From: Eledone cirrhosa
Taxonomy: Eukaryota
Assembly: GCA_964016885.1 (NCBI GenBank)
Contig: OZ024743.1
Span: 205,096,001-205,160,000, forward strand
DNA length: 64,000 bases
Direction of reading: 5' to 3'
Shown here piece after piece: positions 2,601-31,346 of this stretch. The translations under genes were made by a program, and so were the position numbers. Under the pieces are notes generated by a model that made no database searches, was not told where the DNA came from, and saw only the letters and a program-made list of their open reading frames with translations. Positions within the stretch are counted from its first letter, which is position 1; each line of letters opens with the position of its first letter.

Positions 2601-2621
2601 AGATGTATATATATATATATA

Positions 2622-2660
<39 letters not shown>

Positions 2661-2730
2661 CTGTATGTATATATATATATAGATGTATATATATATATTA
2701 TATATGTATATATATACATACATCTATATA

Positions 2731-2774
<44 letters not shown>

Positions 2775-2959
2775 GATAAATCTACCAAGAGTTTACGGTA
2801 GTGTCCAATCCGTATGAAGAACTCAATGTATTCCGGATATCATGGAAAGAAGAGATGTAATGAAAAACGACTTTCGGTGAAAGATAAACGGTATACATAG
2901 TCAAGATAAAATATTAAACAAATAATGAATAAACAATTCCTTATATTAAACAAAAAAAG

Positions 2960-3114
2960 TTCATTATTTAACGATCGTTTCTAGGATATATATGTGTTAT
3001 AATTGGTATGCATATTCAACAGATCTATGTACAAAATTATACAAAATTATACAAATTATCAAGATTAAATATACATACCAAACACATATATACGCCGTCT
3101 TCAGAAATAATGAA
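2960..3114 (-). ncRNA. Type I hammerhead ribozyme motif (copy in inverted PLE unit)
   Basis: Reverse complement of the 12133-12287 motif. Confidence 0.7.
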
Positions 3115-3923
3115 GTATATTTATTGATAATAACAACAATTCAAAATTTCAGTTCAAAATTGACCAATGAAAACACAAAGGGTTAAATGCAGTTCGGTGT
3201 GTGTATATACATGTAAAACCCTTACACATATTTTACAAAAATGTATGTATAATTTGTATACGCATACTAAAAGGATGGATGCAAATACGAAATTTCAAGG
3301 TTAATGTCTCTGTGAGATTACAATGCGCAGATAAGATACTTATGAAATCAAGTATATAAATATATTTTTTCATACTCACACATATCAGTACAATCACACA
3401 TACACGCGCGTATATGCATAAATATACACATAACCACGAACATACAGACACACACACACCCCCACTCACATTTATATATGTGGATATAAAATCATAAGCA
3501 CATGGATATTAATTCACTCACATAAAACACTGGCACACACATTTCTAGATCAAGATACAGAAATTAGGTGGGAGGGGGGGGAGGGGTCAGTATTCAACTG
3601 TCTGAGCAAACTGTCCAATATAAATGTATCTATAAATTAAGAAAAATAAAAAAATAAAACAATAAAATATAATAAATATAATATAATATACATACACATA
3701 CAGATATATACACATACATACATGTACGCACACATAGAAATATTTACGCATACACACATACACACATACATATACAGTCATACACACACATACACTTACA
3801 CGAACATACACATACACATATATAAAGATATATATATATACACACACACACACACACGCAACACATACACACATACACATATATATAAAAATAAATAATA
3901 AAGATATATACCTATATATATAT

Positions 3924-3970
<47 letters not shown>

Positions 3971-4369
3971 GACACACATACATCTAAATATACATACACA
4001 TACATACACACATACATGTACATACATGTACATACATATACGCACATCGATATACATATATATATATATACATATATATATATACACACACATAGACATG
4101 TAGATACATACACACACAACTTACATACACACATATATATATACATGTATATTCATACATAGAATTAGATATATAATCATACATACTTATGCACTTACTT
4201 ATACTCATATATACAAATACATACGCATCTATATATGCATATATACATAAAAAAAACTACAACCTCACCTAACTCAGACATACAAATAAAAATAATAATA
4301 AAAAGGCATATGTATATACATACACACACGCATTAATAGAGATATATATATAGAGACACATACATACAC

Positions 4370-4402
<33 letters not shown>

Positions 4403-4432
4403 TATATATATATATATATACACACATACACT

Positions 4433-4474
<42 letters not shown>

Positions 4475-4541
4475 GATATCCACACACTCATACCACCATA
4501 AATACACATACAAACACCCACATATATATATATATACACAC

Positions 4542-4596
<55 letters not shown>

Positions 4597-4690
4597 TATA
4601 CATACATACATACACATACATACATACATATAAACATATACATACATAAATACACACATACTAATAAAGACATATATTCACACATAGACA

Positions 4691-4736
<46 letters not shown>

Positions 4737-5875
4737 TATATACATATATACACACACACATATACACAGACACATATACACACTCACATATATATATGTG
4801 TGTGTGCGCACACACACATATGTACACACACACACACAAATACACATAAACACATACATATGCATACATGCACACACACACACACATATATCACATAGAT
4901 ACGAAGATAAACATATAAATAGAGAGACATACATATATATACAACACACATACACACACATACATACACACGCATATACATATACATATATATATATATA
5001 CATATATATATTCCTATATATACATGCATACACATATATACACATATATACACATACATACACATATACGTACACACATTCACATACACATACATATATA
5101 ATGCATATATACACATATATACATACATATACACACTCATATATACACACGCAATCTTACATTCATATTTGCATGCGCATATATGTATTTTTATATTTAG
5201 ATATAAATACCCAAACCTATATAGACACCTACCTACATATATATTCATACATAGACGCTTACAAATACAGATGATAATAGTATGGGGGAAAGGGGGGGTT
5301 TGGAGAAGGGGATCAAAGTAAATATATGTTTCAAGAAACATAGAAAATTTTCCGTATTTTTATCCAATGTATGTTCTTACATATTTTCAGTGTTAGGAAA
5401 TACGACAAACAAGAACCAAGGCAAAATCTATGCATCTCAAAATAAATAAGTATATCATTAATCATATGTTAACTAAACCAAAGATAGTCAACATATTGAT
5501 TTCTAAGGTGTAAATTAGTTAGGTTTATAATATTTGAAGCAGAATTTTGAAGTCAAACAGTAGTAGATTATTAATTACAGTATAACTAAATTAAAGTTAA
5601 TAACGTTATGGTATCAATATTAGGAAATGAATTTAGTAATAGGGAAAAAAATAAAATAAAGTATTACATCGGTAGTAGAATATAAATTATATGTTAACTA
5701 AATTAAAAATTATATATTTATTTCAATAGTATATGTTAATTAGGTATACAATACATAAAGCAGATACTGTATTTCATCAATAGCATAATATAATTATATG
5801 CAAATAGAAATCAAAATTAATACGCATACATATACATATACATACACATACACATATACATACATATACACACAC

Positions 5876-5920
<45 letters not shown>

Positions 5921-6444
5921 TACATACATACACATACACATACACACACACACATACACATACACATATACATATACATATCTTTTTCAAAAAAATTGCA
6001 TAGAATATATTAACTAGGTATATATCCAAAACGCATCCCATTCTATGATTACATGACATTCTGCAATTCGTCTGTATAAGGATACTAATTTTAAGCAAAT
6101 TAAAATTAAAATTTTTAGGTTGATTAAAACTAAAACCAAATAATAAATATATTTCTAAAATGTATATTAATTAGGTCTATAATACTAAAAATTATTTCTC
6201 TGTCATTGGATACACGATATTATTTTGTTATATTTTATCTGTAAAAGAGTTATAATAAAAGGTTTAAATAAATTAAAATTAATCTATAAATTAAATTACT
6301 AAGTATATATTAGTAATATTTAAAGGTTTTTCACAATTTATGATTACATAATATTTTATATTCTCATCTGTAATAAAATATTAATTAAATTAAATTTATA
6401 GGTTAACTAACATTTAAATTAAATTAATTTCTAAAATAATGTTA

Positions 6445-8886
6445 TTAATTAGGTTTATAATATTTAAATGTTTTTTTTAGTTTATGATTACACGATATAA
6501 TTAATTCCTGTCGTTTATTTAATAAGATATCCTTAGACTTCATTATTTCAAATAGTTCTTGGGAACATAATCTACATTCATTTCTATTATTTTGATAAGG
6601 GGTGGCTCTTTTGAGCACACTCCAGGTCAAATCATATTTTATATTCTTATTTTTATAACTATTGATTTTTTCTGCTAGAGATGTTGTATTAGCCAGTGCG
6701 GCATTTTTAAAACTATGCTTGTGGGTATTAAACCTTGTCTTAAAATTGTTAGAGGTAGCTCCTATATATGAGCAAATAGAATCTTTAGTTTTAACATTAC
6801 ATTTATAGACTATGTTGTTAACAAGACAATTCCCTTTTAATGGGCAGTTTGCTTTGTTTCTACAGTTACATCCTTTCGTTAATTCTGTATTTGAGGAGAT
6901 ATTATGGTTAATTTGATGTACTGGTGGTATACTTATGGTTTTCTTACATTTATATGCATTATATGCACTTATATTTTGTTTTATGTTATTTGTTGTAGAG
7001 TATGAGAATTTAACTGTAGACCTATTTAAGATTTGATGGTATTTGTGGTTTGGCGGGAAGTTTTTCTCAAGGATATAAAAAAATTTTTTAGCAATATTAT
7101 CCTTAACTTGTAAATTAAAAGGAGCATTATACCAAGTAACCCGTCTATTACGGTTTCTATGTTGTTTATTATTTTTATTATTTTTATAGGTTGTATCGTG
7201 ATTTTTACTAGGAGGATTAATGTTAATGATCTCACCACAACTATTTTTAGTTATATTTGTAGATTTAGGTGTTTTATCTTTTTTATTAGGAGTTTTATTA
7301 TTAATATTTATTATAGTTGTATGATGAGTAGTTTTTTGAGAGTTACTATACTTTATATTAGAAGATTTAGTATTTTGGGGTATAGTGTGGGTGGCATTTA
7401 GGTGTGTACTTTTCATTTGGTGTTTGTTGGTAATATTATGTTGTATGCTTTCAGTATTTTTAGTAGAAGGTATATACTCTAATCTATTTTTGTGGCCACT
7501 TCTATCTAGAGCTTCGTTATAGAAGGTCGCATTTTTATCAAATACATCTTGGTTAGAAGAAAGGTTAGAAATTCTAAGTGATATATTATATGCAAGGTTT
7601 TTAAGGATAGATTTAGGGTGATTAGATTGTGAGTGTATGTAATGTAAGTTTTGGTTAGGTTTATGGTAAGGTTGGTAGATACCCGTAGCTAAATCTAAAG
7701 TTATATCTAGGAAATTTACTACTTTACTTGTTTTTTCAAAAGTAATATTAAGATTATAATAGTCTTTAAGGAAAGTTCTAATATGTTTTTTGTTTTTTTC
7801 GATTTCTGAAAGGCTAAGGTTGTTAGAAAGAAGAAGACAGTCATCACGATATAAACCACCTTTGAGGTGGGGAAAAGAGGCATTTATGTTGAAAAGGAGA
7901 AAGAGGCCCACAAGATCAGTAATTTGGGCGGAATCGCTTGAACCCATAGTAATATCAAAAAGATTACTGTATGTGTTTCTGGTCCAGTATTCATTCTGAA
8001 ATTCAATAAGTGTTAGTCTAGCATGTGTAATAATGTTAATGTCATCCAAAGTTAAGTTAGATCTATTTTTAGCAAATATCAATGCTTTGTTCAGGAGTAT
8101 AGGTGATATAGAAGAATAGTAATTATCTATATCAAATTGTAGGAAAGAAGCAGAAGATTTACACCTAATATTTTTAAACCAGTTAATTACCTGGGAGGTG
8201 TTTTCCCAGAGTGGTAAAATAACGTGTTTTCTTATTTGTGGGATGACTCTATCTAAAATTTTTTTGCTAATTATTCCAATATCTGATTTGGAGGGACATA
8301 TAAGTCTAATAGAAGGATTTGAGTTAAAGTTAGATTTGTGATCTTTCAGGTTGAAGTGTGGTCTTTTCAATGCCAAAGGTTCAGTTCTATCTTCAATGTT
8401 TAGTTTTTTTACTATGTTGTGTGTTTTGTTGTTGATGTTGGTGAGTGACACATTATTAGATTTTTTATAATTTTTTCTGAGTTCTTTATATATGAACTCG
8501 TTATAATGTTCAATATCCATATGATACAAATTACCAGTTTTGTCCGAGTGGACATGGATTTTTTTAGACTTTTTTAGGTCCAATAGGGTAGAATCAAGGT
8601 CCTTTTGAAAGACGGATTTATACTTTTTAAATTTGAGGTGTTTAATTAAATTAAAAAGGTCTTTCTCGAAGTCTTCAAGTAAAAAGTTGTGTGGTGGATT
8701 CTTGTAAGTATTGAAATCATACATATATTTCCGATCTGCTTGTTTAGATTTTCTATCGAAGTGGTAGGCTCTCCATCTAACCCTTCTGATAAAATTATTA
8801 GTTTTCTGAATCATAAGGAGTAAGAAGTCGTCCTTAGAAGGTATTGGTATGTTTTTCAAGGAGGTTCCTAAATATTGTTTTTCCAT
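6445..8886 (-). CDS. PLE reverse transcriptase + C-terminal GIY-YIG endonuclease, intact (813 aa from first ATG)
   Basis: RT motifs DKTGN, PSIRLI, QFDIDNYYSSI, ITMGS, LYRDD, VNFLDITL, YHKP. CNCRNKANCPLKGNC linker, then IVY...YIGAT...FKTRFNTH, CRLC..E, LNKRQEL, C.H. The ORF track start at 8907 is a TTG; first ATG is 8886. Confidence 0.92.
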   Translation of the reverse strand: MEKQYLGTSLKNIPIPSKDDFLLLMIQKTNNFIRRVRWRAYHFDRKSKQADRKYMYDFNTYKNPPHNFLLEDFEKDLFNLIKHLKFKKYKSVFQKDLDSTLLDLKKSKKIHVHSDKTGNLYHMDIEHYNEFIYKELRKNYKKSNNVSLTNINNKTHNIVKKLNIEDRTEPLALKRPHFNLKDHKSNFNSNPSIRLICPSKSDIGIISKKILDRVIPQIRKHVILPLWENTSQVINWFKNIRCKSSASFLQFDIDNYYSSISPILLNKALIFAKNRSNLTLDDINIITHARLTLIEFQNEYWTRNTYSNLFDITMGSSDSAQITDLVGLFLLFNINASFPHLKGGLYRDDCLLLSNNLSLSEIEKNKKHIRTFLKDYYNLNITFEKTSKVVNFLDITLDLATGIYQPYHKPNQNLHYIHSQSNHPKSILKNLAYNISLRISNLSSNQDVFDKNATFYNEALDRSGHKNRLEYIPSTKNTESIQHNITNKHQMKSTHLNATHTIPQNTKSSNIKYSNSQKTTHHTTIININNKTPNKKDKTPKSTNITKNSCGEIININPPSKNHDTTYKNNKNNKQHRNRNRRVTWYNAPFNLQVKDNIAKKFFYILEKNFPPNHKYHQILNRSTVKFSYSTTNNIKQNISAYNAYKCKKTISIPPVHQINHNISSNTELTKGCNCRNKANCPLKGNCLVNNIVYKCNVKTKDSICSYIGATSNNFKTRFNTHKHSFKNAALANTTSLAEKINSYKNKNIKYDLTWSVLKRATPYQNNRNECRLCSQELFEIMKSKDILLNKRQELIISCNHKLKKTFKYYKPN

Positions 8887-9198
8887 TGTGATATGGATGA
8901 TGGACAATTGAAAGAGCTCAACTAAATGTATATGGGTTTACAAAATCATACATATATATATGTTTATACATAAATATAAAATTAATACACACATACAGTA
9001 CAAAAATACGAATATTTCCGTGAAAATAGGAGCAAAATTATGTAGATAAATCTACCAAGAGTTTACGGTAGTGTCCAATCCGTATGAAGAACTCAATGTA
9101 TTCCGGATATCATGGAAAGAAGAGATGTAATGAAAAACGACTTTCGGTGAAAGATAAACGGTATACAGAGTCAAGATAAAATATTAAACAAATAATGA

Positions 9199-10344
9199 TA
9201 TATGTATATGTGTGTGTATATGTATGTATATGTGTATGTGTATGTATATGTATATGTATGCGTATTAATTTTGATTTCTATTTGCATATAATTATATTAT
9301 GCTATTGATGAAATACAGTATCTGCTTTATGTATTGTATACCTAATTAACATATACTATTGAAATAAATATATAATTTTTAATTTAGTTAACATATAATT
9401 CATATTCTACTACCGATGTAATACTTTATTTTATTTGTTTCCCTATTACTAAATTCATTTCCTAATATTGATACCATAACGTTATTAACTTTAATTTAGT
9501 TATACTGTAATTAATAATCTACTACTGTTTGACTTCAAAATTCTGCTTCAAATATTATAAACCTAACTAATTTACACCTTAGAAATCAATATGTTGACTA
9601 TCTTTGGTTTAGTTAACATATGATTAATGATATACTTATTTATTTTGAGATGCATAGATTTTGCCTTGGTTCTTGTTTGTCGTATTTCCTAACACTGAAA
9701 ATATGTAAGAACATACATTGGATAAAAATACGGAAAATTTTCTATGTTTCTTGAAACATATATTTACTTTGATCCCCTTCTCCAAACCCCCCCTTTCCCC
9801 CATACTATTATCATCTGTATTTGTAAGCGTCTATGTATGAATATATATGTAGGTAGGTGTCTATATAGGTTTGGGTATTTATATCTAAATATAAAAATAC
9901 ATATATGCGCATGCAAATATGAATGTAAGATTGCGTGTGTATATATGAGTGTGTATATGTATGTATATATGTGTATATATGCATTATATATGTATGTGTA
10001 TGTGAATGTGTGTACGTATATGTGTATGTATGTGTATATATGTGTATATATGTGTATGCATGTATATATAGGAATATATATATGTATATATATATATGTA
10101 TATGTATATGCGTGTGTATGTATGTGTGTGTATGTGTGTTGTATATATATGTATGTCTCTCTATTTATATGTTTATCTTCGTATCTATGTGATATATGTG
10201 TGTGTGTGTGTGCATGTATGCATATGTATGTTTATGTGTATTTGTGTGTGTGTGTGTACATATGTGTGTGTGCGCACACACACATATATATATGTGAGTG
10301 TGTATATGTGTCTGTGTATATGTGTGTGTGTATATATGTATATA

Positions 10345-10390
<46 letters not shown>

Positions 10391-10484
10391 TGTCTATGTG
10401 TGAATATATGTCTTTATTAGTATGTGTGTATTTATGTATGTATATGTTTATATGTATGTATGTATGTGTATGTATGTATGTATA

Positions 10485-10535
<51 letters not shown>

Positions 10536-10655
10536 CTTTATTATTATAATATAACTTATGTGTATGTATGTATAAGTGAGGTTGTGTACGTGTATATAAT
10601 ATGTGTATATATAAGTGTATTTAATGTATATATATATGTGCATGTCTGTTTTTTA

Positions 10656-10700
<45 letters not shown>

Positions 10701-10769
10701 GTGTGTATATATATATATATATGTGGGTGTTTGTATGTGTATTTATGGTGGTATGAGTGTGTGGATATC

Positions 10770-10813
<44 letters not shown>

Positions 10814-10843
10814 AGTGTATGTGTGTATATATATATATATATA

Positions 10844-10876
<33 letters not shown>

Positions 10877-11275
10877 GTGTATGTATGTGTCTCTATATAT
10901 ATATCTCTATTAATGCGTGTGTGTATGTATATACATATGCCTTTTTATTATTATTTTTATTTGTATGTCTGAGTTAGGTGAGGTTGTAGTTTTTTTTATG
11001 TATATATGCATATATAGATGCGTATGTATTTGTATATATGAGTATAAGTAAGTGCATAAGTATGTATGATTATATATCTAATTCTATGTATGAATATACA
11101 TGTATATATATATGTGTGTATGTAAGTTGTGTGTGTATGTATCTACATGTCTATGTGTGTGTATATATATATATGTATATATATATATATGTATATCGAT
11201 GTGCGTATATGTATGTACATGTATGTACATGTATGTGTGTATGTATGTGTATGTATATTTAGATGTATGTGTGTC

Positions 11276-11322
<47 letters not shown>

Positions 11323-12340
11323 ATATATATATAGGTATATATCTTTATTATTTATTTTTATATATATGTGTATGTGTGTATGTGTTGCGTGTGTGTGTGT
11401 GTGTATATATATATATATCTTTATATATGTGTATGTGTATGTTCGTGTAAGTGTATGTGTGTGTATGACTGTATATGTATGTGTGTATGTGTGTATGCGT
11501 AAATATTTCTATGTGTGCGTACATGTATGTATGTGTATATATCTGTATGTGTATGTATATTATATTATATTTATTATATTTTATTGTTTTATTTTTTTAT
11601 TTTTCTTAATTTATAGATACATTTATATTGGACAGTTTGCTCAGACAGTTGAATACTGACCCCTCCCCCCCCCTCCCACCTAATTTCTGTATCTTGATCT
11701 AGAAATGTGTGTGCCAGTGTTTTATGTGAGTGAATTAATATCCATGTGCTTATGATTTTATATCCACATATATAAATGTGAGTGGGGGTGTGTGTGTGTC
11801 TGTATGTTCGTGGTTATGTGTATATTTATGCATATACGCGCGTGTATGTGTGATTGTACTGATATGTGTGAGTATGAAAAAATATATTTATATACTTGAT
11901 TTCATAAGTATCTTATCTGCGCATTGTAAGCTCACAGAGACATTAACCTTGAAATTTCGTATTTGCATCCATCCTTTTAGTATGCGTATACAAATTATAC
12001 ATACATTTTTGTAAAATATGTGTAAGGGTTTTACATGTATATACACACACCGAACTGCATTTAACCCTTTGTGTTTTCATTGGTCAATTTTGAACTGAAA
12101 TTTTGAATTGTTGTTATTATCAATAAATATACTTCATTATTTCTGAAGACGGCGTATATATGTGTTTGGTATGTATATTTAATCTTGATAATTTGTATAA
12201 TTTTGTATAATTTTGTACATAGATCTGTTGAATATGCATACCAATTATAACACATATATATCCTAGAAACGATCGTTAAATAATGAACTTTTTTTGTTTA
12301 ATATAAGGAATTGTTTATTCATTATTTGTTTAATATTTTA
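9199..12340 (+). repeat. 5' pseudo-LTR of the PLE (about 3.1 kb, largely TA/TG/TATG microsatellite mosaic)
   Basis: Near-identical to about 15631-18780 (offset 6432-6440) and to the inverted copy at about 2907-5886. Confidence 0.88.
12133..12287 (+). ncRNA. Type I hammerhead ribozyme motif with about 115-nt stem II
   Basis: Stem I TTCATTATTT (12133-12142) pairs with AAATAATGAA (12278-12287). Core CTGAAGA at 12143-12149. Stem II pairs TATATATGTGTT/AACACATATATA and TGGTATGTATATT/AATATGCATACCA. GAAA at 12266-12269, palindromic stem III C-GATC-G, predicted cleavage after GTT at 12277. Confidence 0.72.
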
Positions 12341-12630
12341 TCTTGACTCTGTATACCGTTTATCTTTCACCGAAAGTCGTTTTTCATTACATCTCTTCTT
12401 TCCATGATATCCGGAATACATTGAGTTCTTCATACGGATTGGACACTACCGTAAACTCTTGGTAGATTTATCTACATAATTTTGCTCCTATTTTCACGGA
12501 AATATTCGTATTTTTGTACTGTATGTGTGTATTAATTTTATATTTATGTATAAACATATATATATGTATGATTTTGTAAACCCATATACATTTAGTTGAG
12601 CTCTTTCAATTGTCCATCATCCATATCACA

Positions 12631-15072
12631 ATGGAAAAACAATATTTAGGAACCTCCTTGAAAAACATACCAATACCTTCTAAGGACGACTTCTTACTCC
12701 TTATGATTCAGAAAACTAATAATTTTATCAGAAGGGTTAGATGGAGAGCCTACCACTTCGATAGAAAATCTAAACAAGCAGATCGGAAATATATGTATGA
12801 TTTCAATACTTACAAGAATCCACCACACAACTTTTTACTTGAAGACTTCGAGAAAGACCTTTTTAATTTAATTAAACACCTCAAATTTAAAAAGTATAAA
12901 TCCGTCTTTCAAAAGGACCTTGATTCTACCCTATTGGACCTAAAAAAGTCTAAAAAAATCCATGTCCACTCGGACAAAACTGGTAATTTGTATCATATGG
13001 ATATTGAACATTATAACGAGTTCATATATAAAGAACTCAGAAAAAATTATAAAAAATCTAATAATGTGTCACTCACCAACATCAACAACAAAACACACAA
13101 CATAGTAAAAAAACTAAACATTGAAGATAGAACTGAACCTTTGGCATTGAAAAGACCACACTTCAACCTGAAAGATCACAAATCTAACTTTAACTCAAAT
13201 CCTTCTATTAGACTTATATGTCCCTCCAAATCAGATATTGGAATAATTAGCAAAAAAATTTTAGATAGAGTCATCCCACAAATAAGAAAACACGTTATTT
13301 TACCACTCTGGGAAAACACCTCCCAGGTAATTAACTGGTTTAAAAATATTAGGTGTAAATCTTCTGCTTCTTTCCTACAATTTGATATAGATAATTACTA
13401 TTCTTCTATATCACCTATACTCCTGAACAAAGCATTGATATTTGCTAAAAATAGATCTAACTTAACTTTGGATGACATTAACATTATTACACATGCTAGA
13501 CTAACACTTATTGAATTTCAGAATGAATACTGGACCAGAAACACATACAGTAATCTTTTTGATATTACTATGGGTTCAAGCGATTCCGCCCAAATTACTG
13601 ATCTTGTGGGCCTCTTTCTCCTTTTCAACATAAATGCCTCTTTTCCCCACCTCAAAGGTGGTTTATATCGTGATGACTGTCTTCTTCTTTCTAACAACCT
13701 TAGCCTTTCAGAAATCGAAAAAAACAAAAAACATATTAGAACTTTCCTTAAAGACTATTATAATCTTAATATTACTTTTGAAAAAACAAGTAAAGTAGTA
13801 AATTTCCTAGATATAACTTTAGATTTAGCTACGGGTATCTACCAACCTTACCATAAACCTAACCAAAACTTACATTACATACACTCACAATCTAATCACC
13901 CTAAATCTATCCTTAAAAACCTTGCATATAATATATCACTTAGAATTTCTAACCTTTCTTCTAACCAAGATGTATTTGATAAAAATGCGACCTTCTATAA
14001 CGAAGCTCTAGATAGAAGTGGCCACAAAAATAGATTAGAGTATATACCTTCTACTAAAAATACTGAAAGCATACAACATAATATTACCAACAAAAACCAA
14101 ATGAAAAGTACACACCTAAATGCCACCCACACTATACCCCAAAATACTAAATCTTCTAATATAAAGTATAGTAACTCTCAAAAAACTACTCATCATACAA
14201 CTATAATAAATATTAATAATAAAACTCCTAATAAAAAAGATAAAACACCTAAATCTACAAATATAACTAAAAATAGTTGTGGTGAGATCATTAACATTAA
14301 TCCTCCTAGTAAAAATCACGATACAACCTATAAAAATAATAAAAATAATAAACAACATAGAAACCGTAATAGACGGGTTACTTGGTATAATGCTCCTTTT
14401 AATTTACAAGTTAAGGATAATATTGCTAAAAAATTTTTTTATATCCTTGAGAAAAACTTCCCGCCAAACCACAAATACCATCAAATCTTAAATAGGTCTA
14501 CAGTTAAATTCTCATACTCTACAACAAATAACATAAAACAAAATATAAGTGCATATAATGCATATAAATGTAAGAAAACCATAAGTATACCACCAGTACA
14601 TCAAATTAACCATAATATCTCCTCAAATACAGAATTAACGAAAGGATGTAACTGTAGAAACAAAGCAAACTGCCCATTAAAAGGGAATTGTCTTGTTAAC
14701 AACATAGTCTATAAATGTAATGTTAAAACTAAAGATTCTATTTGCTCATATATAGGAGCTACCTCTAACAATTTTAAGACAAGGTTTAATACCCACAAGC
14801 ATAGTTTTAAAAATGCCGCACTGGCTAATACAACATCTCTAGCAGAAAAAATCAATAGTTATAAAAATAAGAATATAAAATATGATTTGACCTGGAGTGT
14901 GCTCAAAAGAGCCACCCCTTATCAAAATAATAGAAATGAATGTAGATTATGTTCCCAAGAACTATTTGAAATAATGAAGTCTAAGGATATCTTATTAAAT
15001 AAACGACAGGAATTAATTATATCGTGTAATCATAAACTAAAAAAAACATTTAAATATTATAAACCTAATTAA
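12631..15072 (+). CDS. PLE reverse transcriptase + C-terminal GIY-YIG endonuclease, intact (813 aa from first ATG)
   Basis: Same protein as 6445-8886 apart from one visible substitution (ITNKNQ vs ITNKHQ). No stops or frameshifts. Confidence 0.92.
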   Translation: MEKQYLGTSLKNIPIPSKDDFLLLMIQKTNNFIRRVRWRAYHFDRKSKQADRKYMYDFNTYKNPPHNFLLEDFEKDLFNLIKHLKFKKYKSVFQKDLDSTLLDLKKSKKIHVHSDKTGNLYHMDIEHYNEFIYKELRKNYKKSNNVSLTNINNKTHNIVKKLNIEDRTEPLALKRPHFNLKDHKSNFNSNPSIRLICPSKSDIGIISKKILDRVIPQIRKHVILPLWENTSQVINWFKNIRCKSSASFLQFDIDNYYSSISPILLNKALIFAKNRSNLTLDDINIITHARLTLIEFQNEYWTRNTYSNLFDITMGSSDSAQITDLVGLFLLFNINASFPHLKGGLYRDDCLLLSNNLSLSEIEKNKKHIRTFLKDYYNLNITFEKTSKVVNFLDITLDLATGIYQPYHKPNQNLHYIHSQSNHPKSILKNLAYNISLRISNLSSNQDVFDKNATFYNEALDRSGHKNRLEYIPSTKNTESIQHNITNKNQMKSTHLNATHTIPQNTKSSNIKYSNSQKTTHHTTIININNKTPNKKDKTPKSTNITKNSCGEIININPPSKNHDTTYKNNKNNKQHRNRNRRVTWYNAPFNLQVKDNIAKKFFYILEKNFPPNHKYHQILNRSTVKFSYSTTNNIKQNISAYNAYKCKKTISIPPVHQINHNISSNTELTKGCNCRNKANCPLKGNCLVNNIVYKCNVKTKDSICSYIGATSNNFKTRFNTHKHSFKNAALANTTSLAEKINSYKNKNIKYDLTWSVLKRATPYQNNRNECRLCSQELFEIMKSKDILLNKRQELIISCNHKLKKTFKYYKPN

Positions 15073-15596
15073 TAACATTATTTTAGAAATTAATTTAATT
15101 TAAATGTTAGTTAACCTATAAATTTAATTTAATTAATATTTTATTACAGATGAGAATATAAAATATTATGTAATCATAAATTGTGAAAAACCTTTAAATA
15201 TTACTAATATATACTTAGTAATTTAATTTATAGATTAATTTTAATTTATTTAAACCTTTTATTATAACTCTTTTACAGATAAAATATAACAAAATAATAT
15301 CGTGTATCCAATGACAGAGAAATAATTTTTAGTATTATAGACCTAATTAATATACATTTTAGAAATATATTTATTATTTGGTTTTAGTTTTAATCAACCT
15401 AAAAATTTTAATTTTAATTTGCTTAAAATTAGTATCCTTATACAAACGAATTGCAGAATGTCATGTAATCATAGAATGGGATGCGTTTTGGATATATACC
15501 TAGTTAATATATTCTATGCAATTTTTTTGAAAAAGATATGTATATGTATATGTGTATGTGTATGTGTGTGTGTGTATGTGTATGTGTATGTATGTA

Positions 15597-15630
<34 letters not shown>

Positions 15631-15641
<11 letters not shown>

Positions 15642-16778
15642 GTGTGTGTATATGTATGTATATGTGTATGTGTATGTATATGTATATGTATGCGTATTAA
15701 TTTTGATTTCTATTTGCATATAATTATATTATGCTATTGATGAAATACAGTATCTGCTTTATGTATTGTATACCTAATTAACATATACTATTGAAATAAA
15801 TATATAATTTTTAATTTAGTTAACATATAATTTATATTCTACTACCGATGTAATACTTTATTTTATTTTTTTCCCTATTACTAAATTCATTTCCTAATAT
15901 TGATACCATAACGTTATTAACTTTAATTTAGTTATACTGTAATTAATAATCTACTACTGTTTGACTTCAAAATTCTGCTTCAAATATTATAAACCTAACT
16001 AATTTACACCTTAGAAATCAATATGTTGACTATCTTTGGTTTAGTTAACATATGATTAATGATATACTTATTTATTTTGAGATGCATAGATTTTGCCTTG
16101 GTTCTTGTTTGTCGTATTTCCTAACACTGAAAATATGTAAGAACATACATTGGATAAAAATACGGAAAATTTTCTATGTTTCTTGAAACATATATTTACT
16201 TTGATCCCCTTCTCCAAACCCCCCCTTTCCCCCATACTATTATCATCTGTATTTGTAAGCGTCTATGTATGAATATATATGTAGGTAGGTGTCTATATAG
16301 GTTTGGGTATTTATATCTAAATATAAAAATACATATATGCGCATGCAAATATGAATGTAAGATTGCGTGTGTATATATGAGTGTGTATATGTATGTATAT
16401 ATGTGTATATATGCATTATATATGTATGTGTATGTGAATGTGTGTACGTATATGTGTATGTATGTGTATATATGTGTATATATGTGTATGCATGTATATA
16501 TAGGAATATATATATGTATATATATATATGTATATGTATATGCGTGTGTATGTATGTGTGTGTATGTGTGTTGTATATATATGTATGTCTCTCTATTTAT
16601 ATGTTTATCTTCGTATCTATGTGATATATGTGTGTGTGTGTGTGCATGTATGCATATGTATGTGTTTATGTGTATTTGTGTGTGTGTGTGTACATATGTG
16701 TGTGTGCGCACACACACATATATATATGTGAGTGTGTATATGTGTCTGTGTATATGTGTGTGTGTATATATGTATATA

Positions 16779-16826
<48 letters not shown>

Positions 16827-16920
16827 TGTCTATGTGTGAATATATGTCTTTATTAGTATGTGTGTATTTATGTATGTATATGTTTATATGTATGTATGTA
16901 TGTGTATGTATGTATGTATA

Positions 16921-16977
<57 letters not shown>

Positions 16978-17099
16978 CTTTATTATTATAATATAACTTA
17001 TGTGTATGTATGTATAAGTGAGGTTGTGTACGTGTATATAATATGTGTATATATAAGTGTATTTAATGTATATATATATATGTGCATGTCTGTTTTTTA

Positions 17100-17144
<45 letters not shown>

Positions 17145-17211
17145 GTGTGTATATATATATATATGTGGGTGTTTGTATGTGTATTTATGGTGGTATGAGT
17201 GTGTGGATATC

Positions 17212-17253
<42 letters not shown>

Positions 17254-17283
17254 AGTGTATGTGTGTATATATATATATATATA

Positions 17284-17316
<33 letters not shown>

Positions 17317-17715
17317 GTGTATGTATGTGTCTCTATATATATATCTCTATTAATGCGTGTGTGTATGTATATACATATGCCTTTTTATTATTATTTTTAT
17401 TTGTATGTCTGAGTTAGGTGAGGTTGTAGTTTTTTTTATGTATATATGCATATATAGATGCGTATGTATTTGTATATATGAGTATAAGTAAGTGCATAAG
17501 TATGTATGATTATATATCTAATTCTATGTATGAATATACATGTATATATATATGTGTGTATGTAAGTTGTGTGTGTATGTATCTACATGTCTATGTGTGT
17601 GTATATATATATATGTATATATATATATATGTATATCGATGTGCGTATATGTATGTACATGTATGTACATGTATGTGTGTATGTATGTGTATGTATATTT
17701 AGATGTATGTGTGTC

Positions 17716-17762
<47 letters not shown>

Positions 17763-18772
17763 ATATATATATAGGTATATATCTTTATTATTTATTTTTA
17801 TATATATGTGTATGTGTGTATGTGTTGCGTGTGTGTGTGTGTGTGTATATATATATATCTTTATATATGTGTATGTGTATGTTCGTGTAAGTGTATGTGT
17901 GTGTATGACTGTATATGTATGTGTGTATGTGTGTATGCGTAAATATTTCTATGTGTGCGTACATGTATGTATGTGTATATATCTGTATGTGTATGTATAT
18001 TATATTATATTTATTATATTTTATTGTTTTATTTTTTTATTTTTCTTAATTTATAGATACATTTATATTGGACAGTTTGCTCAGACAGTTGAATACTGAC
18101 CCCTCCCCCCCCCTCCCACCTAATTTCTGTATCTTGATCTAGAAATGTGTGTGCCAGTGTTTTATGTGAGTGAATTAATATCCATGTGCTTATGATTTTA
18201 TATCCACATATATAAATGTGAGTGGGGGTGTGTGTGTGTCTGTATGTTCGTGGTTATGTGTATATTTATGCATATACGCGCGTGTATGTGTGATTGTACT
18301 GATATGTGTGAGTATGAAAAAATATATTTATATACTTGATTTCATAAGTATCTTATCTGCGCATTGTAAGCTCACAGAGACATTAACCTTGAAATTTCGT
18401 ATTTGCATCCATCCTTTTAGTATGCGTATACAAATTATACATACATTTTTGTAAAATATGTGTAAGGGTTTTACATGTATATACACACACCGAACTGCAT
18501 TTAACCCTTTGTGTTTTCATTGGTCAATTTTGAACTGAAATTTTGAATTGTTGTTATTATCAATAAATATACTTCATTATTTCTGAAGACGGCGTATATA
18601 TGTGTTTGGTATGTATATTTAATCTTGATAATTTGTATAATTTTGTATAATTTTGTACATAGATCTGTTGAATATGCATACCAATTATAACACATATATA
18701 TCCTAGAAACGATCGTTAAATAATGAACTTTTTTTGTTTAATATAAGGAATTGTTTATTCATTATTTGTTTA

Positions 18773-18780
<8 letters not shown>
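15631..18780 (+). repeat. 3' pseudo-LTR of the PLE
   Basis: Direct repeat of 9199-12340. Terminates at ...GTTTAATATTTTA joined to (TA)n. Confidence 0.88.
18573..18727 (+). ncRNA. Type I hammerhead ribozyme motif (3' pLTR copy)
   Basis: Same sequence as 12133-12287 at offset 6440. Confidence 0.7.
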
Positions 18781-18804
<24 letters not shown>

Positions 18805-18818
18805 CATACATCTATATA

Positions 18819-18880
<62 letters not shown>

Positions 18881-18905
18881 ATATATATATACATACATCT
18901 ATATA

Positions 18906-18943
<38 letters not shown>

Positions 18944-18950
18944 TGTATAT

Positions 18951-21900
18951 ATCATCATCATCATCATCATCATCGTTTAACGTCCATGTTCCACGCTTGC
19001 ATGGGTTTGGACGGGAGTTTTCCCACTTGAGGCAAGAGTGGTTGTCTTGCTCGCATAGGACTGTCTGGTGGGTTTTCTACAGCTGGATGCCCTTCCTAAC
19101 ACCAACCACATTTACAGTGTGGGACTGGGAGGTTTTTACCGTGTTGCCTACACGGCCACATTACAGCGTGGACTGTTTTTTTTTTTTGTTTTTTTTTGTC
19201 GTGACACCTACACGAACTCATTTGTTTCGGCCTGGATGATGTGGCACCAACATAACTTTACATTGAAAGGGGCGGTGTGGATGGGGTGGGGGTGGTGGGA
19301 CGGGGGTGTGTTTTGTTAGAGATGCCTACTGACTGTAGTAGGTTTTACTTTGTATTTAGGTAAGGCGGGTCTTCTCTATTACTGAGTACCGCCAAAGGTC
19401 TTGGTCCAGTGACATTGTCTTGGAGAGGTGTAAGCGTGTGAGGTTGGAATTTATCAGCTCGTCCCAGGTTTTTCTGGGTCTGCCTACTCCGTGGCTACCA
19501 TCTATCTTTATTGCCCTGCACTTTGCTATACAGCTGTTGTCTTTCATGCGCATCACGTGACCATACCAACGTAGCCTTCTCTCGAGTAAACATCTGATCC
19601 CTCTTATTTCTTATTTTTTCCTTAGTTCGTTTATGCTTTGCCGTTCACGTATATTACTATTACACATCCAGCGGAGCATGCAAGCTTCGTTCCTCTCTAG
19701 TCTGCGTATATCCTCTGCACACAATGCCCAGGTCTCACTGCCATGCAACATTGCTGTTCGTATGCAGGCATCATACAACCTTTCATTTTTAGGGAGAACC
19801 CTTTAGCGGCTAATAGTGGTATAAGCTCTCTGAACTTTTTCCATCCAGTTCTGACTCTAGCTACTGTACTTTCAGAGCACCCTCCCCCACTGCTGATTTT
19901 GTCACCCAGGCAACGGAAGCTGTCCACTATTTCTATAGAACCCTCTGTGCAATTGAAAGAGCTAGTATTTTGTGGGCACTTGCTGCTACTTTTTGCACCA
20001 GAGCACCGGCCATATGTAAAATCTGTGTTCTTAGTTAGCTTACCTGTGATCCCACTACATCTTTTATGCACCCATACTTTGCATTTGGGACATAAAATGG
20101 AGTTTCTACCTACGCCTTTCCTACACACTGAGCATGGCCATTTCTCGGAAGGCACCGGCGCCTTATTTTCTTTCCTACAAACTAGAACTTTAGTCTTAGC
20201 CAGGTTAATTTTAAGGCCTTTTGATTCTAGGCCGTGCTTCCATGTTTGGAATTTCTTCTCTAGCTCGGCCATTGATTCAGCTATGAGCGTTAGATCATCT
20301 GCGTATAGGAGTTCCCATGGGCAGCCGGTCTTGAACTCCTCTGTTATAGCCTGAAGGGCAATAATAAATAGTAGGGGGCTAAGAACAGAGCCCTGATGGA
20401 CACCAACTTTTACGCTAAACTCTTCACTATATTCATTGTTAATTCTAACCTTGCTGACTGTTTCTTTATACATGGCTTGTATAGCTCTCATAAGCCATTC
20501 GTCAACACCTAGTTTTCTAAGAGCCCACCAGATAATGGAACGGGGGACTCTGTCGAAGGCTTTCTCCAAGTCGACAAAAGCTAAGTATAGGGGTTTACTT
20601 TTAGCTAGGTACTTCTCCTGTAGTTGCCGTAAAATGAAAAGAGCGTCTGTGGTACTTTTGCCTGACACAAACCCGAACTGCATTTCATCTAGATCAATTC
20701 TCTCTCTGATTAGTTGCGCTATTACTTTTTCCGTGACCTTCATGACCTGGTCGATTAATTTAATGCCTCTATAGTTACTCCTATCTAGGGCGTCTCCTTT
20801 ACTCTTGTAACAGTTTTAGGAAATAAATATCGGTGTACATGCAACATAATATAAAAGACAGTAAATACTGGTGTGTGTGTGCGTAATAAAGTTTTACTTC
20901 ATAGAAGTCAAAAGGCATATAATATAAGGGTTTGTTACCCGATGGTAATAATACAATTCTGAAGTTGGTAGAAACATCTTGGCGCTCTCACCTCAGGCTG
21001 CAAGCTGCATTGTGCTTGGTAACGAAAGGGTCGTCCAGAAGGAATCACAAGCTATGGTCGAAGGTGTTACCACTTCAGGAATCAGGAGGCGAGAGGGAGA
21101 TTTTGCGGTAAACCGCTCCTTTTATATCTGTTGCCCGTAAGTGACCACCAGGGAGTCTGGTCAATCCCAAAGGGAAGCAACTCCACCTACTTCCTGTCTA
21201 GAGAGCAGTGATTAGATTGTCGTGGCAGGGGAGGCAACTCTTACTACATTATCCCCCGCCAGATTTTGAAAACATAAAAATCGAAAGAAGCATGCATGGA
21301 GTAAGATGGCGAGCATGTAAGAGGCATGAATATGTAGCAGTAGCCTCCCTTGTTGTGACTCACAACCCCAATAGATTGACATCTAGACGGGAAATAGAAC
21401 CCTTTCTGTAACTTCCGGCAGAGCCCTATAAAACGAATAGCTCTCGGCTCTCTCCCTCTCATTTGCCCTTCCGGCGCCTGGCCTTCGCCAGGCGTCTCGC
21501 GTTTGCCTGGCAATCAAAACGGTAACTAACAGTTAATGATGATGCTGCTACGCCAGTCCTTCGGAACAACCCCATTCTGTATGACTTGGTTTACTATCCG
21601 GGTGACCATGGTGTGTCCCACCGTTCCAGAGGCCTTCAGCATCTCAGCAACTATTTCCGAAGGCCCAGCCGCCTTACCCGTCTTCATATCTTTGATTGCC
21701 TTACTTATTATACTACCTTCAACTAACACTGCTGGTCCCTCTATTGGATCGATCTGGGGGAGACTATCCTTCTCCCATTTATTCTCCTTATTTAGTAGCC
21801 TCTCGTAGTGACACTTCCAAGCGACCTTCTTATCAGCGTCAGTGATGGCGAGTACGCCATCATCATTTAGTACACACTTCTCCCCAACAATATCACGGTT

Positions 21901-23345
21901 TTCCTTGACTCATTGCCTAGCAATCCTGAACACCTCACGTTTTTGGTCCTCGCGTTGTAGAACATGCTTGAACTTTCTTTCCTCTGCTTCCCTTCTTGCG
22001 AAGTACACTTGTCTCCTAGCTTCCCTCCTGGCCACTTGATAGTCTTCTCTACTTCCCCCATCCCGCCATACTTTCCAAGCCTGCTTTTTGGCCTTAATCG
22101 ACTCCTCCACCTTACTGTTCCACCACCATGTTACTCTCCTCCTGCCTATAGGCCTGCTCCGGCCACAGACTTCGTCTGCCGCCATCAGCAGGTTTGCTTT
22201 CAGGAATTCCCACTGTTCCTCTATATTGTACGACTCTAAATGCTCTTCCTTACTGTCGAAAGCATCAAGTAATATGCTTTGAAATTTATTTCTGGCTGTG
22301 GGGTCCTTTAGCTTCCATATTTTTCTCCTGAGGATAGTCCTCTTCTGCTGTCGGGTACGTCTCGTCCTGACTATGAGGTCGCTAATTATCAGTCTATGTT
22401 GGGAGGTGCATTCTTCATGGGGGAGGGATTTAGTGTTTACAACAGTCACTCTGTCACGTCTTCTGGTAAGGATATAATCTACCTGGCTGGTATGTTCCCC
22501 TGATCTGTAGGTGATCAAGTGATTGTCTCGTTTTTTGAAGTTAGTGTTACAGATTGTTAGGTTATTTGCGTCACAGAATTCCAGGATTCTGGAGCCTTCC
22601 TCATTTCTAGTACCAAACCCATAGCCTCCATGGATTCCATCATAGCCGTCACAATGTTGTCCAACGTGACCATTTAGGTCGCCAGCAATAATTATATAGT
22701 CACTGTCGGTTATTTGGGAGGTAGTGAGCATCAGTGTCTCATAGAAAGTGTCTTTTATAGCGCCAGGCAGTCTGGATGGGGGTGCGTACGCAGATATTAT
22801 CGTCACAGTAGTTCTATTTAGAACAAGTCTTATTTTAATTATTCTGTCGTTTACTCTATTTACGTCTATTATCTTATCCGCCCATTTTTCTGCTAACATG
22901 ATTCCTACCCCACCCAGCCCATTGTCATTTCCCACCCAGAAAAGCTTATAGCATCGTTTTTTATCCACAATGAATCTAGCAGACCCGCCCCTCCACCTGG
23001 TCTCTTGGATGCAGCAGACATCAACCTCCTTACGTTCAAGCATTTCTACAACCTCGTTTGAGCGGCCTTTTAAGGTCCCTACATTCATGGTACCAACTCT
23101 GAAGTTTTGGATTGCGTTTGGTGTATGGGGTGCAGGGAGGGGTGAGGTTGATGGGGTTGGGGTTATGTTGGCCATCTGCGGCCGCAACAAAGAGGGTGGG
23201 GCTTTGCCCTTTCGTCCGGCAGCATGAGGTGAATTTGTCGTTATCTTTTGCATTGTCTTCGGGTGTCCAGATTCTTCTGACTCTCCAGAAATTCCCTAGT
23301 TCATCCATCATATCGAAAAAGCAACCAGAAGTGTTAGCATAGGTC
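18951..23345 (-). mobile_element. Near full-length RTE LINE (family A), disrupted
   Basis: APE endonuclease in ORF 21910-23253 (GTMNVGTL...CIQETRW...AGDLNGH...VDYIL...HRLI). RT in 21526-21729 and 19697-20743, then Cys-rich insert, C-terminus, 3' UTR and (CAT)n on the plus strand. Contains stops, frameshifts and a nested insertion. 5' boundary approximate. Confidence 0.9.
20816..21526. mobile_element. Unclassified ~0.7 kb insertion inside the RTE RT, flanked by 8-bp direct repeat TAACAGTT
   Basis: Splits the RT motif IINC/YKSKGDALDRSNYRGI. TAACAGTT at 20808-20815 and 21527-21534. No clear TIRs or coding similarity. Confidence 0.75.
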
Positions 23346-23912
23346 GTTTACTTGTGATTGGTCCAAATAATAAGGTGGAGAGTGGGGGCGGGAGGGAGGG
23401 AGGGTATGGGGTAGTTTGCGAGGAGCAGAATTATTTTTAGAACAACGGTGAGACAGAACAGAATTATAGAAAGCCAATTTTGAATACGATTTTTTGATTC
23501 TGGGGGATTGTAAGATATATAGATGAATGAACCGAATGTGGAGAGTTGAGAAGAAAATGAGATATGTACGTTACATTTCGTAGAAGAAAAACTGAACAAG
23601 CGACCATCAATAATAGTTGACAAATTCTGGGTTTAGTCCCCCGTAACAAGACCTATTTATATTTGGTTGGCAAGGAGTGAGGGGGAGTGTGAGAGCAGCG
23701 TATATGATAGTGAGAGTGAGGGGGTGAGAGGGTGAGAGGCTATTTCAGCAGGCCGAGAGAGAGAGAGAGGCCAATCCCTAATTTAACCTGGCGTAATTTT
23801 TTGGCCAAAATGGTTGCGGGAATATTATTTAGAATTATAGAAAGACAAACAATTATGAACATGATTTTTTGATTCTGGGGGATTGTAAGATATATAGATG
23901 CGAGGAGCAGAA

Positions 23913-23951
<39 letters not shown>

Positions 23952-24061
23952 CATCTATATAGATATATATATATATATATAAATATATATATAGATGTAT
24001 ATATATATATATATATAAATATATATATAGATGTATATATATATATATATATATATCTATA

Positions 24062-24112
<51 letters not shown>

Positions 24113-24264
24113 GGGTACTATTTATGGTTATGTATATACTAAAACTTTTTATAGTTATGTATATTTTAAACCCTAAACAGTGAAAGACAGTAATTTATTA
24201 CTACCTTATTACCAGTAAGATAAATAGCTCAATGTAATAACATCAGTTGTTCTACAGAGCAGTT

Positions 24265-24339
24265 ATATAGAATTCACAAGAATCAAAGCATTTACAAGTG
24301 AATAAATGCTTTGAACATAGCTTTGATTCTTGTGAATTC

Positions 24340-24344
<5 letters not shown>
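24265..24344. repeat. Inverted repeat, 25-bp arms, ending a TA-embedded unique island (about 24107-24344)
   Basis: ATATAGAATTCACAAGAATCAAAGC ... GCTTTGATTCTTGTGAATTCTATAT with a 30-nt spacer. Confidence 0.9.
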
Positions 24345-24378
<34 letters not shown>

Positions 24379-24380
<2 letters not shown>

Positions 24381-25820
24381 GAATCAATGGCCGAGCTAGA
24401 GAAGAAATTCCAAACATGGAAGCACGGCCTAGAATCAAAAGGCCTTAAAATTAATCTGGCTAAGACCAAAGTTCTAGTTTGTAGGAAAGAAAATAAGGCG
24501 GCGATCCCTTCCGGGAAGTGGCCATACTCAGTGTGTAGGAAAGGCGTAGGTAGAAACTCCATTTTGTGTCAGAAATGCAAAGTATGGGTGCATAAAAGAT
24601 GTAGTGGGATCACAGGTAAGCTAACCAAGAACATAGATTTCACATGTGGCCGGTGCTCTGGTGCAATAAGTAGCAGCAAGTGCCCACAAAATACTAGCTC
24701 TTTCAACTGCGCAGAGGGCTCTATAGAAATAGTGGACAGCTTCCGTTGCCTGGGTGACAAAATCAGCAGTGGGGGAGGGTGCTCTGAACGTACAGTAGCT
24801 AGAGTCAGAACTGGATGGAAAAAGTTCAGAGAGCTTATACCACTATTAGCCGCTAAAGGGTTCTCCCTAAAAATGAAAGGCAGGTTGTATAATGCCTGCA
24901 TACGAACAGCAATGTTGCATGGCAGTGAGACCTGGGCATTGTGTGCAGAGGATATATGCAGACTAGAGAGGAACGAAGCTTGCATGCTCCGCTGGATGTG
25001 TAATAGTAATATACGTGAACGGCAAAGCATAAACGAACTAAAGAAAAAATTAGAAATAAGAGGGATCAGATGTTGTTTACTCGAGAGAAGGCTACGTTGG
25101 TATGGACACGCGATGCGCATGAAAGTCGATAGCTGTATAACAAAGTGCAGGGCAATAAAGATAGACGGTAGCCACGGAATAGGCAGACCTAGAAAAACCT
25201 GGGACGAGCTGATAAATTCCGACCTCACACACTTACACCTCTCCAAGACAATGTCACTGGACCGAGACCTTTGGCGGTACTCAGTAACAGAGAAGACCCG
25301 CCTTACCTAAATACAAAGTAAAACCTACTACAGTCAGTAGGCATCACTAACAAAATACACCCCCGTCCCACCACCCCCACCCCATCCACACCGCCCCTTT
25401 CAATGTAAAGTTATGTTGGTGCCACAACATCCAGGCCGAAACAAATGAGATCGTGTAGGTGTCATGACAAAAAAAACACTCAGTCCACGCTGTAATGTGG
25501 CCGTGTAGGCAACACGGTAAAAACCTCCCAGCCCCACACTGTAAATGTGGTTGGTGTTAGGAAGGGCATCCAGCTGTAGAAAACCCGCCAGACAGTCCAC
25601 GCTGTAATGTGGCCGTGTAGGCAACACGGTAAAAACCTCCCAGCCCCACACCGTAAATGTGGTTGGTGTTAGGAAGGGCATCCAACTGTAGAAAACCCGC
25701 CAGACAGTCCTATGCGAGCAATGACAACCACTCTTGCCTCAAGTGGGAAAACTCCCGTCCAAACCCATGCAAGCGTGGAACACGAACGTTAAACGTTGAT
25801 GATGATGATGATGATGATGA
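24379..25820 (+). mobile_element. RTE LINE (family A), 5'-truncated
   Basis: ORF 24387-25310 is the uninterrupted Cys-rich insert plus RTE C-terminus. 3' UTR has a 112-bp tandem duplication and a (GAT)n tail. Confidence 0.9.
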
Positions 25821-29038: not shown

Positions 29039-29189
29039 CTAAATAGGTGATAATGAAAATTTTTCATGTTCCGTGAGTTCAGGATGCCAAAAATCAACAA
29101 TCAATACAATTCGGTTCTTATTTCCTTGATGCCAAACTTCATGTTCAAAAGAATCATCAAATATTATGAATTCTCCTTCTTTCCAATTC
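29039..29189 (-). CDS. ASPH: Aspartyl/asparaginyl beta-hydroxylase, last coding exon
   Basis: NWKEGEFIIFDDSFEHEVWHQGNKNRIVLIVDFWHPELTEHEKFSLSPI-stop matches the ASPH C-terminus (DDSFEHEVW, WHPEL). AG acceptor, phase 2. Confidence 0.95.
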
Positions 29190-31100: not shown

Positions 31101-31215
31101 GAACATACACACACATGTATATATACACACATACACATTATATATTCCTGAATGCACTTTATAGCACTTGATTTATGAACAAAAATAAACAATTTAGTAT
31201 AATATAAGACATTAC

Positions 31216-31346
31216 CTTGTTTTATTGCCAACTCTTATTTTAACACCAGATGGCACTACTAAACCAAGATGGGCTCTTAAACGACAGTTTGTTGGACCAC
31301 AATGTGGCCACACATGACTTCCTGGTTTCATGATGGAAAATTTCAC
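31216..31346 (-). CDS. ASPH: ASPH exon (catalytic domain)
   Basis: VKFSIMKPGSHVWPHCGPTNCRLRAHLGLVVPSGVKIRVGNKT(R). AG/GT junctions, 131 bp. Confidence 0.95.

Follow-up and report, generated by a model that had tools for sequence, protein, structure and literature searches.

We analysed a window of 64,000 nucleotides from Eledone cirrhosa (GenBank assembly GCA_964016885.1, contig OZ024743.1, C4 below, positions 205,096,001 to 205,160,000 of the forward strand), in which 16 kb (2769..18780/18781 in window positions, used throughout unless a contig is named) are occupied by one insertion of a Hydra-clade Penelope-like element (PLE), as assembled and as resolved by self-alignment. The insertion is built from a 6,440-bp unit (12342-18781) and has three parts: an inverted arm (2769..9198, reverse strand, read from 9198 to 2769), which begins at the equivalent of 12319 and spans one full unit plus 137 nt of the next; the element's own 3′ half (9199..12341, the equivalent of 15631-18781 and belonging to a preceding unit), placed as a pseudo-long terminal repeat (pLTR) in front of the third part; and the full unit. 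The 3′ region with its predicted hammerhead ribozyme is thus present three times, at 9199-12341 and 15631-18781 on the forward strand and at 5887-2906 on the reverse strand. Two open reading frames (ORFs) of 813 codons diverge from the centre, at 8886-6445 (reverse strand) and 12631-15072 (forward strand); they differ at 1 of 2,442 nucleotides, the inverted copy having H489, which is the allele of 44/44 other matches, and the forward copy having N489, which is private. Both outer ends (2769 and 18780/18781) run directly into (TA)n (2606..2768 and 18782..18952), and this target sits between the tails of two opposed RTE-type long interspersed element (LINE) relics. A preliminary description of this DNA, drawn from its letters only, had proposed the pair of 813-aa reverse transcriptase (RT)/GIY-YIG frames one residue apart, the three pLTR-type copies and the insertion in (TA)n, all of which our alignment reproduced.

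The window's three copies differ from one another by about seven substitutions in 16 kb, a 169-bp deletion and microsatellite indels. Six of the substitutions did not occur at any other available locus (each site had 2 to 102 comparisons), and the remaining one lies in a microsatellite; the insertion would be at most about 0.12 million years old if the octopus rate quoted in PMC13282606 applies. The private substitutions in the three copies argue against an assembly artefact, or a later duplication or inversion of one copy, as the source of the 16-kb layout, and so do the outer ends, which fall exactly at the two sites (S1 and S2, see below) used at dozens of other loci, and a sibling locus on contig C1 with an identical three-part layout. 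Although the copies are more than 99% identical and embedded in microsatellites, and the junction at 9198/9199 is read from the assembly, we consider such an origin extremely improbable.

The AlphaFold model of the 813-aa protein (pLDDT 85.4) has an RT at about residues 1-478, a disordered linker rich in N, T and K (479-572), and a GIY-YIG nuclease (690-793). The top nine Foldseek matches to the model were telomerase RTs, and the top VIA match was TERT (Z 14.5), level with the DRT2 RT; residues 690-793 matched the I-TevI GIY-YIG domain (Z 9.8, rmsd 2.4, 89 residues aligned). Pfam and PDB sequence searches left the protein unrecognised, with no Pfam RT match; we found 118 homologues at 31-48% identity, to which a profile search added thousands, and a profile match to a retron RT (E 0.001). 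The motifs named in the preliminary description are where it had placed them: YRDD (346-349), VY (693-694) and YIG (707-709) with no CxxC between them, the CxC-x5-C linker, and the distal PY-x6-CRLC (763-774) followed by its C.H. Among 68 homologues, nuclease residues Y694, Y707, G709, R718 and H722 are invariant, and E777 and N790 are near-invariant; R, H, E and N are the catalytic residues expected of the C-terminal nuclease of endonuclease-bearing PLEs.

According to Craig et al. (2021, PMC8557442), members of the Hydra clade have an RWK motif and DKT, lack CCHH, carry a CxCX5C linker, flank the catalytic E and N with CxxC and CxH, contain a hammerhead and insert into (TA)n. In our protein the RWK-type motif is RVRWR (35-39; K or R stands at this column in 60/68 homologues) and GxKF/Y is not conserved; DKG is replaced by DKT (115-117); the CxxC of CCHH is absent from the query and from 114/114 full-length homologues; the linker cysteines are C673, C675 and C681 (CNCRNKANC, 673-681); and CRLC (771-774) and CNH (799-801) enclose E777 and N790. 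A single ORF with a telomerase-related RT, a partial tandem (the pLTR), an inverted 5′ copy and a one-sided tail are the features of endonuclease-bearing (EN+) PLEs; the protein lacks the CCHH and DKG of Penelope/Poseidon, Neptune and Nematis, and its nuclease is C-terminal, not N-terminal as in Naiad/Chlamys. Four 12-aa Hydra reference motifs are identical at 7-8/12 positions in the query and at 10-11/12 in its homologues. These motifs, together with collinearity by eye with Hydra-1_Obim and Hydra-1_Amil (which share the RWK-like motif, RWR here, DKT, CxCx5C, no CCHH, CxxC/CxH, a 3′ type I hammerhead and (TA)n; PMC8557442), support the assignment to the Hydra clade, which had been proposed in the preliminary description. 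The element is a new family in a published clade, of which (TA)n targeting, the hammerhead and the partial-tandem-plus-inverted layout were already known.

Within the clade the family has several features of its own. The clade is described as generally short (<3 kb), and the 27 Hydra families in the supplement of PMC8557442, Hydra-1_Obim of Octopus bimaculoides among them, measure 1.1-3.0 kb, whereas the unit here is 6.44 kb, with tandem spacings of 5.6-7.0 kb; the excess is due to a long 3′ region (15073..18781). This 3.7-kb region, which ends at S1 into (TA)n, is rich in degenerate TA/TG microsatellite and has 15 perfect (TA)6+ runs. Each long copy carries this 3.7 kb of microsatellite-like DNA, so the element spreads the type of sequence that it targets. 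The hammerhead with a stem II of about 110 nt, the thousands of copies, the 137-nt tail and the linker of 106 aa (median 12 in 68 homologues) are also unusual. Hydra-1_Obim is collinear by eye over the first 400 aa but is a separate family, with a different hammerhead and a protein far from identical, and it is listed with "no pLTR" (PMC8557442), in contrast to the clear pLTR and inverted arm here. A second PLE in the window (60850-62905, reverse strand), from which the 813-aa element had been said to differ clearly, is indeed distinct: this relic has DKG, YVDD and CxxC in its GIY-YIG domain, and only 52 aa of the nuclease align (E 8e-4). A stop (near 62429) and a frameshift (near 61830) break this CCHH-type PLE, which has long (TA)n arrays and RTE ends on its flanks.

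Motif inspection and folding predicted three type I hammerheads in the window, at 2960..3114 (reverse strand), 12133..12287 and 18573..18727 (both forward strand), consistent with the canonical hammerhead of the Hydra clade; an Rfam scan did not detect them and returned only AT-repeat microRNA noise. In the pLTR copy, stem I (10 bp) pairs 12133-12142 with 12278-12287, the core is formed by CTGAAGA (12143-12149) and GAAA (12266-12269), stem II is a long hairpin (z -7.35), stem III is short and palindromic, and the predicted cut follows GUU after 12277. Core and stems are kept across the subfamilies that we aligned.

We counted exact matches in the whole genome (3.0 Gb, 1,796 contigs; the window begins at C4:205,096,001). 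A 27-mer of the RT has 869 matches, a 20-mer at the outer end S2 has 5,158, and read-through from S2 into the ORF leader has 297. We sampled the first 40 read-through loci on C1, of which 39 were used (L203 was dropped, its anchor being outside the fetched stretch): an intact ORF was found in 26/39, mostly 95.5-100% identical to the window ORF, which extrapolates to about 200 intact copies genome-wide. The pN/pS ratio was 0.12 for shared and 0.48 for private variants; with the tree (from which the rearranged copy L212 was left out), this suggests purifying selection on the shared changes and several active lineages. Copy counts, intact ORFs and the tree thus agree with the youth and probable mobility claimed in the preliminary description, and the genome-wide check that it had called for gave thousands of termini and low divergence; the locus in the window is one of thousands of insertions, a point that description had not weighed. 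We conclude that the family is abundant, has been active recently and is probably still mobile. Sequencing runs from three studies, labelled with four other organisms, contain near-identical pieces (0-4 differences in 150-500 nt), which shows that the family exists outside the Eledone cirrhosa assembly; these pieces may stem from close relatives and recent shared activity, or from horizontal transfer.

Some copies in the genome form tandem arrays of 2-4 units, and in the tree the units of an array are closest to one another in 5/5 arrays or pairs. Three tandem units share an 18-bp deletion; three (L200-L202, C1:126.84-126.86 Mb) share one frameshift, suggesting either a defective template copied in trans or a later tandem duplication. 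We also observed an unusual tandem of truncated arms at C1:162169023-162183231, where six element 5′ ends follow one another in a run, 2.2-2.9 kb apart.

The outer ends of the family fall at two fixed sites 137 nt apart, S1 (12340/12341) and S2 (12478), whose internal copies lie at 12341..12478; in the inverted arm the tail between them occupies 2769..2906, with S2 against (TA)n. Genome-wide, TA follows directly on 1,526 S1 ends (counted with a subfamily-specific pattern) and on 3,955 S2 ends. Of the first 100 S2 matches on C1, seven read through and 91 of the 93 others adjoin (TA)n, the remaining two lying in AT-rich DNA; the TA preference expected from the window locus therefore holds for other copies as well. 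The two kinds of end are paired: for 23 of the 35 S1 ends listed, an S2 end facing outward lies no more than 25 kb away (about 0.012 expected by chance for each), S2-S2 pairs number only one among 100 S2 ends, and 34/40 inverted partner arms end exactly at 12341, with three more within 3 nt. Insertions of the element into TA repeats number in the thousands and take the form of arms set back to back. A 65-bp match between the two flanks was considered as a target-site duplication and rejected, the motif also recurring inside the right flank; in a search for long target duplications such a match appeared in 1/39 mini-insertions (shuffled mean 0.16, max 2), and we regard such duplications as absent.

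The inner ends were mapped on 99 of the S2 arms sampled on C1 (L111 was dropped as mis-oriented). Of these, 67 reach the 5′ side of the hammerhead, and 24 of the 67 stop at 12134-12139, mostly at A12136; among partner arms, 26/40 stop at 12133-12139. Two arms that both stop near 12136 form a palindromic mini-copy, about 500-570 bp in length. Across the genome, 12136 is the exact start of 1,730 arms preceded by a non-template base, and that base is G in 29 of 100 listed; at the control position 12138 (334 arms) it is G in 6/100 listed (P 2e-5 against 12136). The A count at the control is inflated by palindromic overlaps, but G and C there stand level (6 and 7). Copying of an RNA cap leaves an extra G, and this excess makes 12136 a likely capped transcript start. 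A12136 lies in TCATT (12134..12138), which we take to be an initiator-like context. Two other candidates were rejected: a 5′ end at 12095 corresponds to an 18-bp insertion in older subfamilies, and the start of the window's inverted arm, 12319, is shared by 0/99 arms. Nine upstream ATGs lie between the likely start and the ORF (12136-12630), and no convincing intron signals were found in this leader.

The arms that go on through a whole unit behave differently when they meet the same position again: 0/33 ORF-bearing copies stop at 12134-12139, compared with 24/67 first-pass arms (P 1e-5), and the contrast persists after tandem arrays are collapsed (0/27, P 1e-4). We did not find this contrast described in the literature searched. 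It bears on the explanation that the cluster at 12136 marks RT stalling, or release at a hairpin in the complementary DNA (cDNA), at the base of stem II and not an RNA 5′ end. The cluster does lie about 10-15 nt past the base of the long stable hairpin; but a sequence-intrinsic stop should act at each pass, and neither the G excess nor the initiator-like context would be predicted, so we judge stalling quite unlikely. The 0/33 result instead points to long-arm templates that have no 5′ end a unit upstream of where priming occurs.

Taken together, we favour, with a probability of roughly 0.85, one recent insertion of an autonomous Hydra-clade PLE, in which the protein likely cut both strands of (TA)n and primed at S1 and S2 from the two broken ends, leaving the inverted arm pair. 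The anatomy, motifs, fold, copy number, TA flanks and fixed, paired ends are observed; the steps that follow are the best explanation of them. By analogy with the Poseidon element PAc, the RT/GIY-YIG protein would cut both strands of (TA)n, and the two 3′-OH ends would prime on element RNA, with S1 used by one end and S2 by the other. Transcription would begin at A12136 and yield capped RNA, on which priming at S1 and S2, near the 5′ end, would run off after about 205 and 342 nt; such run-off from capped linear RNA could produce the many 500-570-bp palindromic mini-copies. The long arms (9.6 kb and 6.4 kb here) would be copied from a template that lacks the 12136 end, and short microhomology or the addition of a few bases would connect the two cDNAs. 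The simplest candidate for the long-arm template is a 6.44-kb circle formed when two hammerheads cut the RNA and its ends are ligated, which we put somewhat below even odds, the other option being upstream read-through RNA.

Several points weigh against parts of this reading. The mechanism is deduced here from genomic sequence. The S1 and S2 totals are unequal, to which the subfamily-specific S1 pattern contributes, and some S2 arms lack a nearby inverted partner, so that pairing is not strict. The extra G can also be an untemplated addition at an uncapped end. The circle step is weakened by PAc, whose hammerhead mutants insert normally in vitro and for which no RNA-seq reads end at the cut site, in the data reported by Frangieh et al. 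(2024, PMC11167929). Just 3/99 arms here begin at the predicted cut (0.2 expected), and one of these is ambiguous, being explicable by microhomology. A second copy of the 5′ strand of stem I (12318..12327) is predicted to compete with the hammerhead stem: in equilibrium folding of secondary structure only, stem I pairing falls from 0.92 to 0.02-0.03 once this downstream copy is included, and is at most 0.04 on RNA starting at 12136. Finally, a single circle would explain the non-identical copies in the window only with RT error or later mutation.

Long arms may instead come from uncleaved multi-unit RNA, or from host-initiated read-through RNA, by the same priming, the hammerhead having no part in making the template; we regard this as a serious possibility, though one we would bet against. 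PAc inserts from unprocessed RNA in vitro (PMC11167929), the decoy strand is predicted to outcompete stem I, and the tandem arrays of 2-4 units are possible sources of such RNA. On the other hand, every unit has the inferred start at 12136, so that many templates should end there one unit upstream, which 0/33 ORF-bearing copies do, and the hammerhead core and stems are kept across the aligned subfamilies. LTR-like strand transfer is another alternative, in which run-off cDNA re-anneals to the repeated 3′-end sequence of the same or another RNA and then continues. RNA from 12136 to the next hammerhead would be terminally redundant (12136-12277 = 18576-18717) and run-off products at 12136 are abundant, yet a second run-off there after one unit should then be common (again 0/33), and no RNase H domain appears in the predicted model or its fold matches; we consider strand transfer unlikely.

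A fuller version of the preferred reading, which we put forward tentatively and as rather doubtful, assigns separate fates to two forms of RNA: capped linear RNA, transcribed from a promoter within the hammerhead, would give only dead-end 0.5-kb palindromes, whereas a hammerhead-made 6.44-kb coding circle, copied repeatedly by an RT complex working from two ends, would give full-length and tandem insertions, with the decoy strand gating the ribozyme. If it is true, the PLE hammerhead would gain its long-sought role and the pLTRs would be explained. Craig et al. (2021, PMC8557442) state that the PLE transposition cycle and the role of the hammerhead are open; both have been addressed only in part, in vitro and for one Poseidon element (PMC11167929), and we found no functional study of a Hydra-clade element in the literature searched. 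The first-pass/second-pass contrast makes the role of the hammerhead directly testable. The family offers an intact, near-unmutated ORF, a precise map of its RNA that places the start, both priming sites and the ribozyme, and thousands of natural insertions as a reference for an in vitro system. TA specificity with two-ended priming is also of interest for RNA-templated insertion tools.

The closest functional parallel is PAc of Anolis carolinensis, which cuts and extends both strands in vitro and whose tail is bounded by two internal RT start sites (PMC11167929). PAc resembles our element in having two fixed internal start sites just 3′ of the hammerhead, a one-sided tail, AT-rich targets, priming on both strands and the ability to use uncleaved RNA. 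It differs in belonging to the Penelope/Poseidon clade, with a CCHH nuclease, and in its tail, 30-40 nt inside the ORF as against 137 nt in the 5′ leader here; its start sites were shown in vitro, whereas ours are deduced from genomic ends. Penelope of Drosophila virilis and Pen2a of Adineta vaga (PMC2377424, PMC3846280) share the partial tandem with inverted copy, the single tail and an initiator-like promoter in the pLTR, but (TA)n specificity and a cap-marked run-off population are not among the features described in the accounts consulted; there the palindromes of A. vaga were read as self-priming on antisense RNA, while we explain ours by two target-primed cDNAs. Metazoan non-LTR retrozymes (Cervera and de la Pena, 2020, PMC7229834; bioRxiv 10.64898/2026.07.22.740005) are similar in their type I hammerhead, tandem copies and proposed circular RNA template; they are non-coding circles of 170-400 nt for which the circle has been shown (PMC7229834), whereas a 6.4-kb coding PLE circle would be deduced from the arms.

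We also annotated other features of the window. Exons of ASPH (aspartyl/asparaginyl beta-hydroxylase) lie at 29081-35083 on the reverse strand, including catalytic-domain exons at C4:205127212-367 and 205125081-194; a location of the element inside this gene was rejected, as the last coding exon ends near 29081 and the element lies about 10 kb beyond. RTE-type LINE relics are found at 140-2600, 18950-25700 and 52800-55160, and (CAT)n/(TA)n tails, present at the ends of many of them, provide targets for the Penelope family. Between two RTE ends lies a nearly pure TA/CA microsatellite of 4.3 kb (55162-59453). A 51-bp minisatellite (45974-47053) has 21 copies that are 97% identical, and a 43-bp array is located at 48829-49093.

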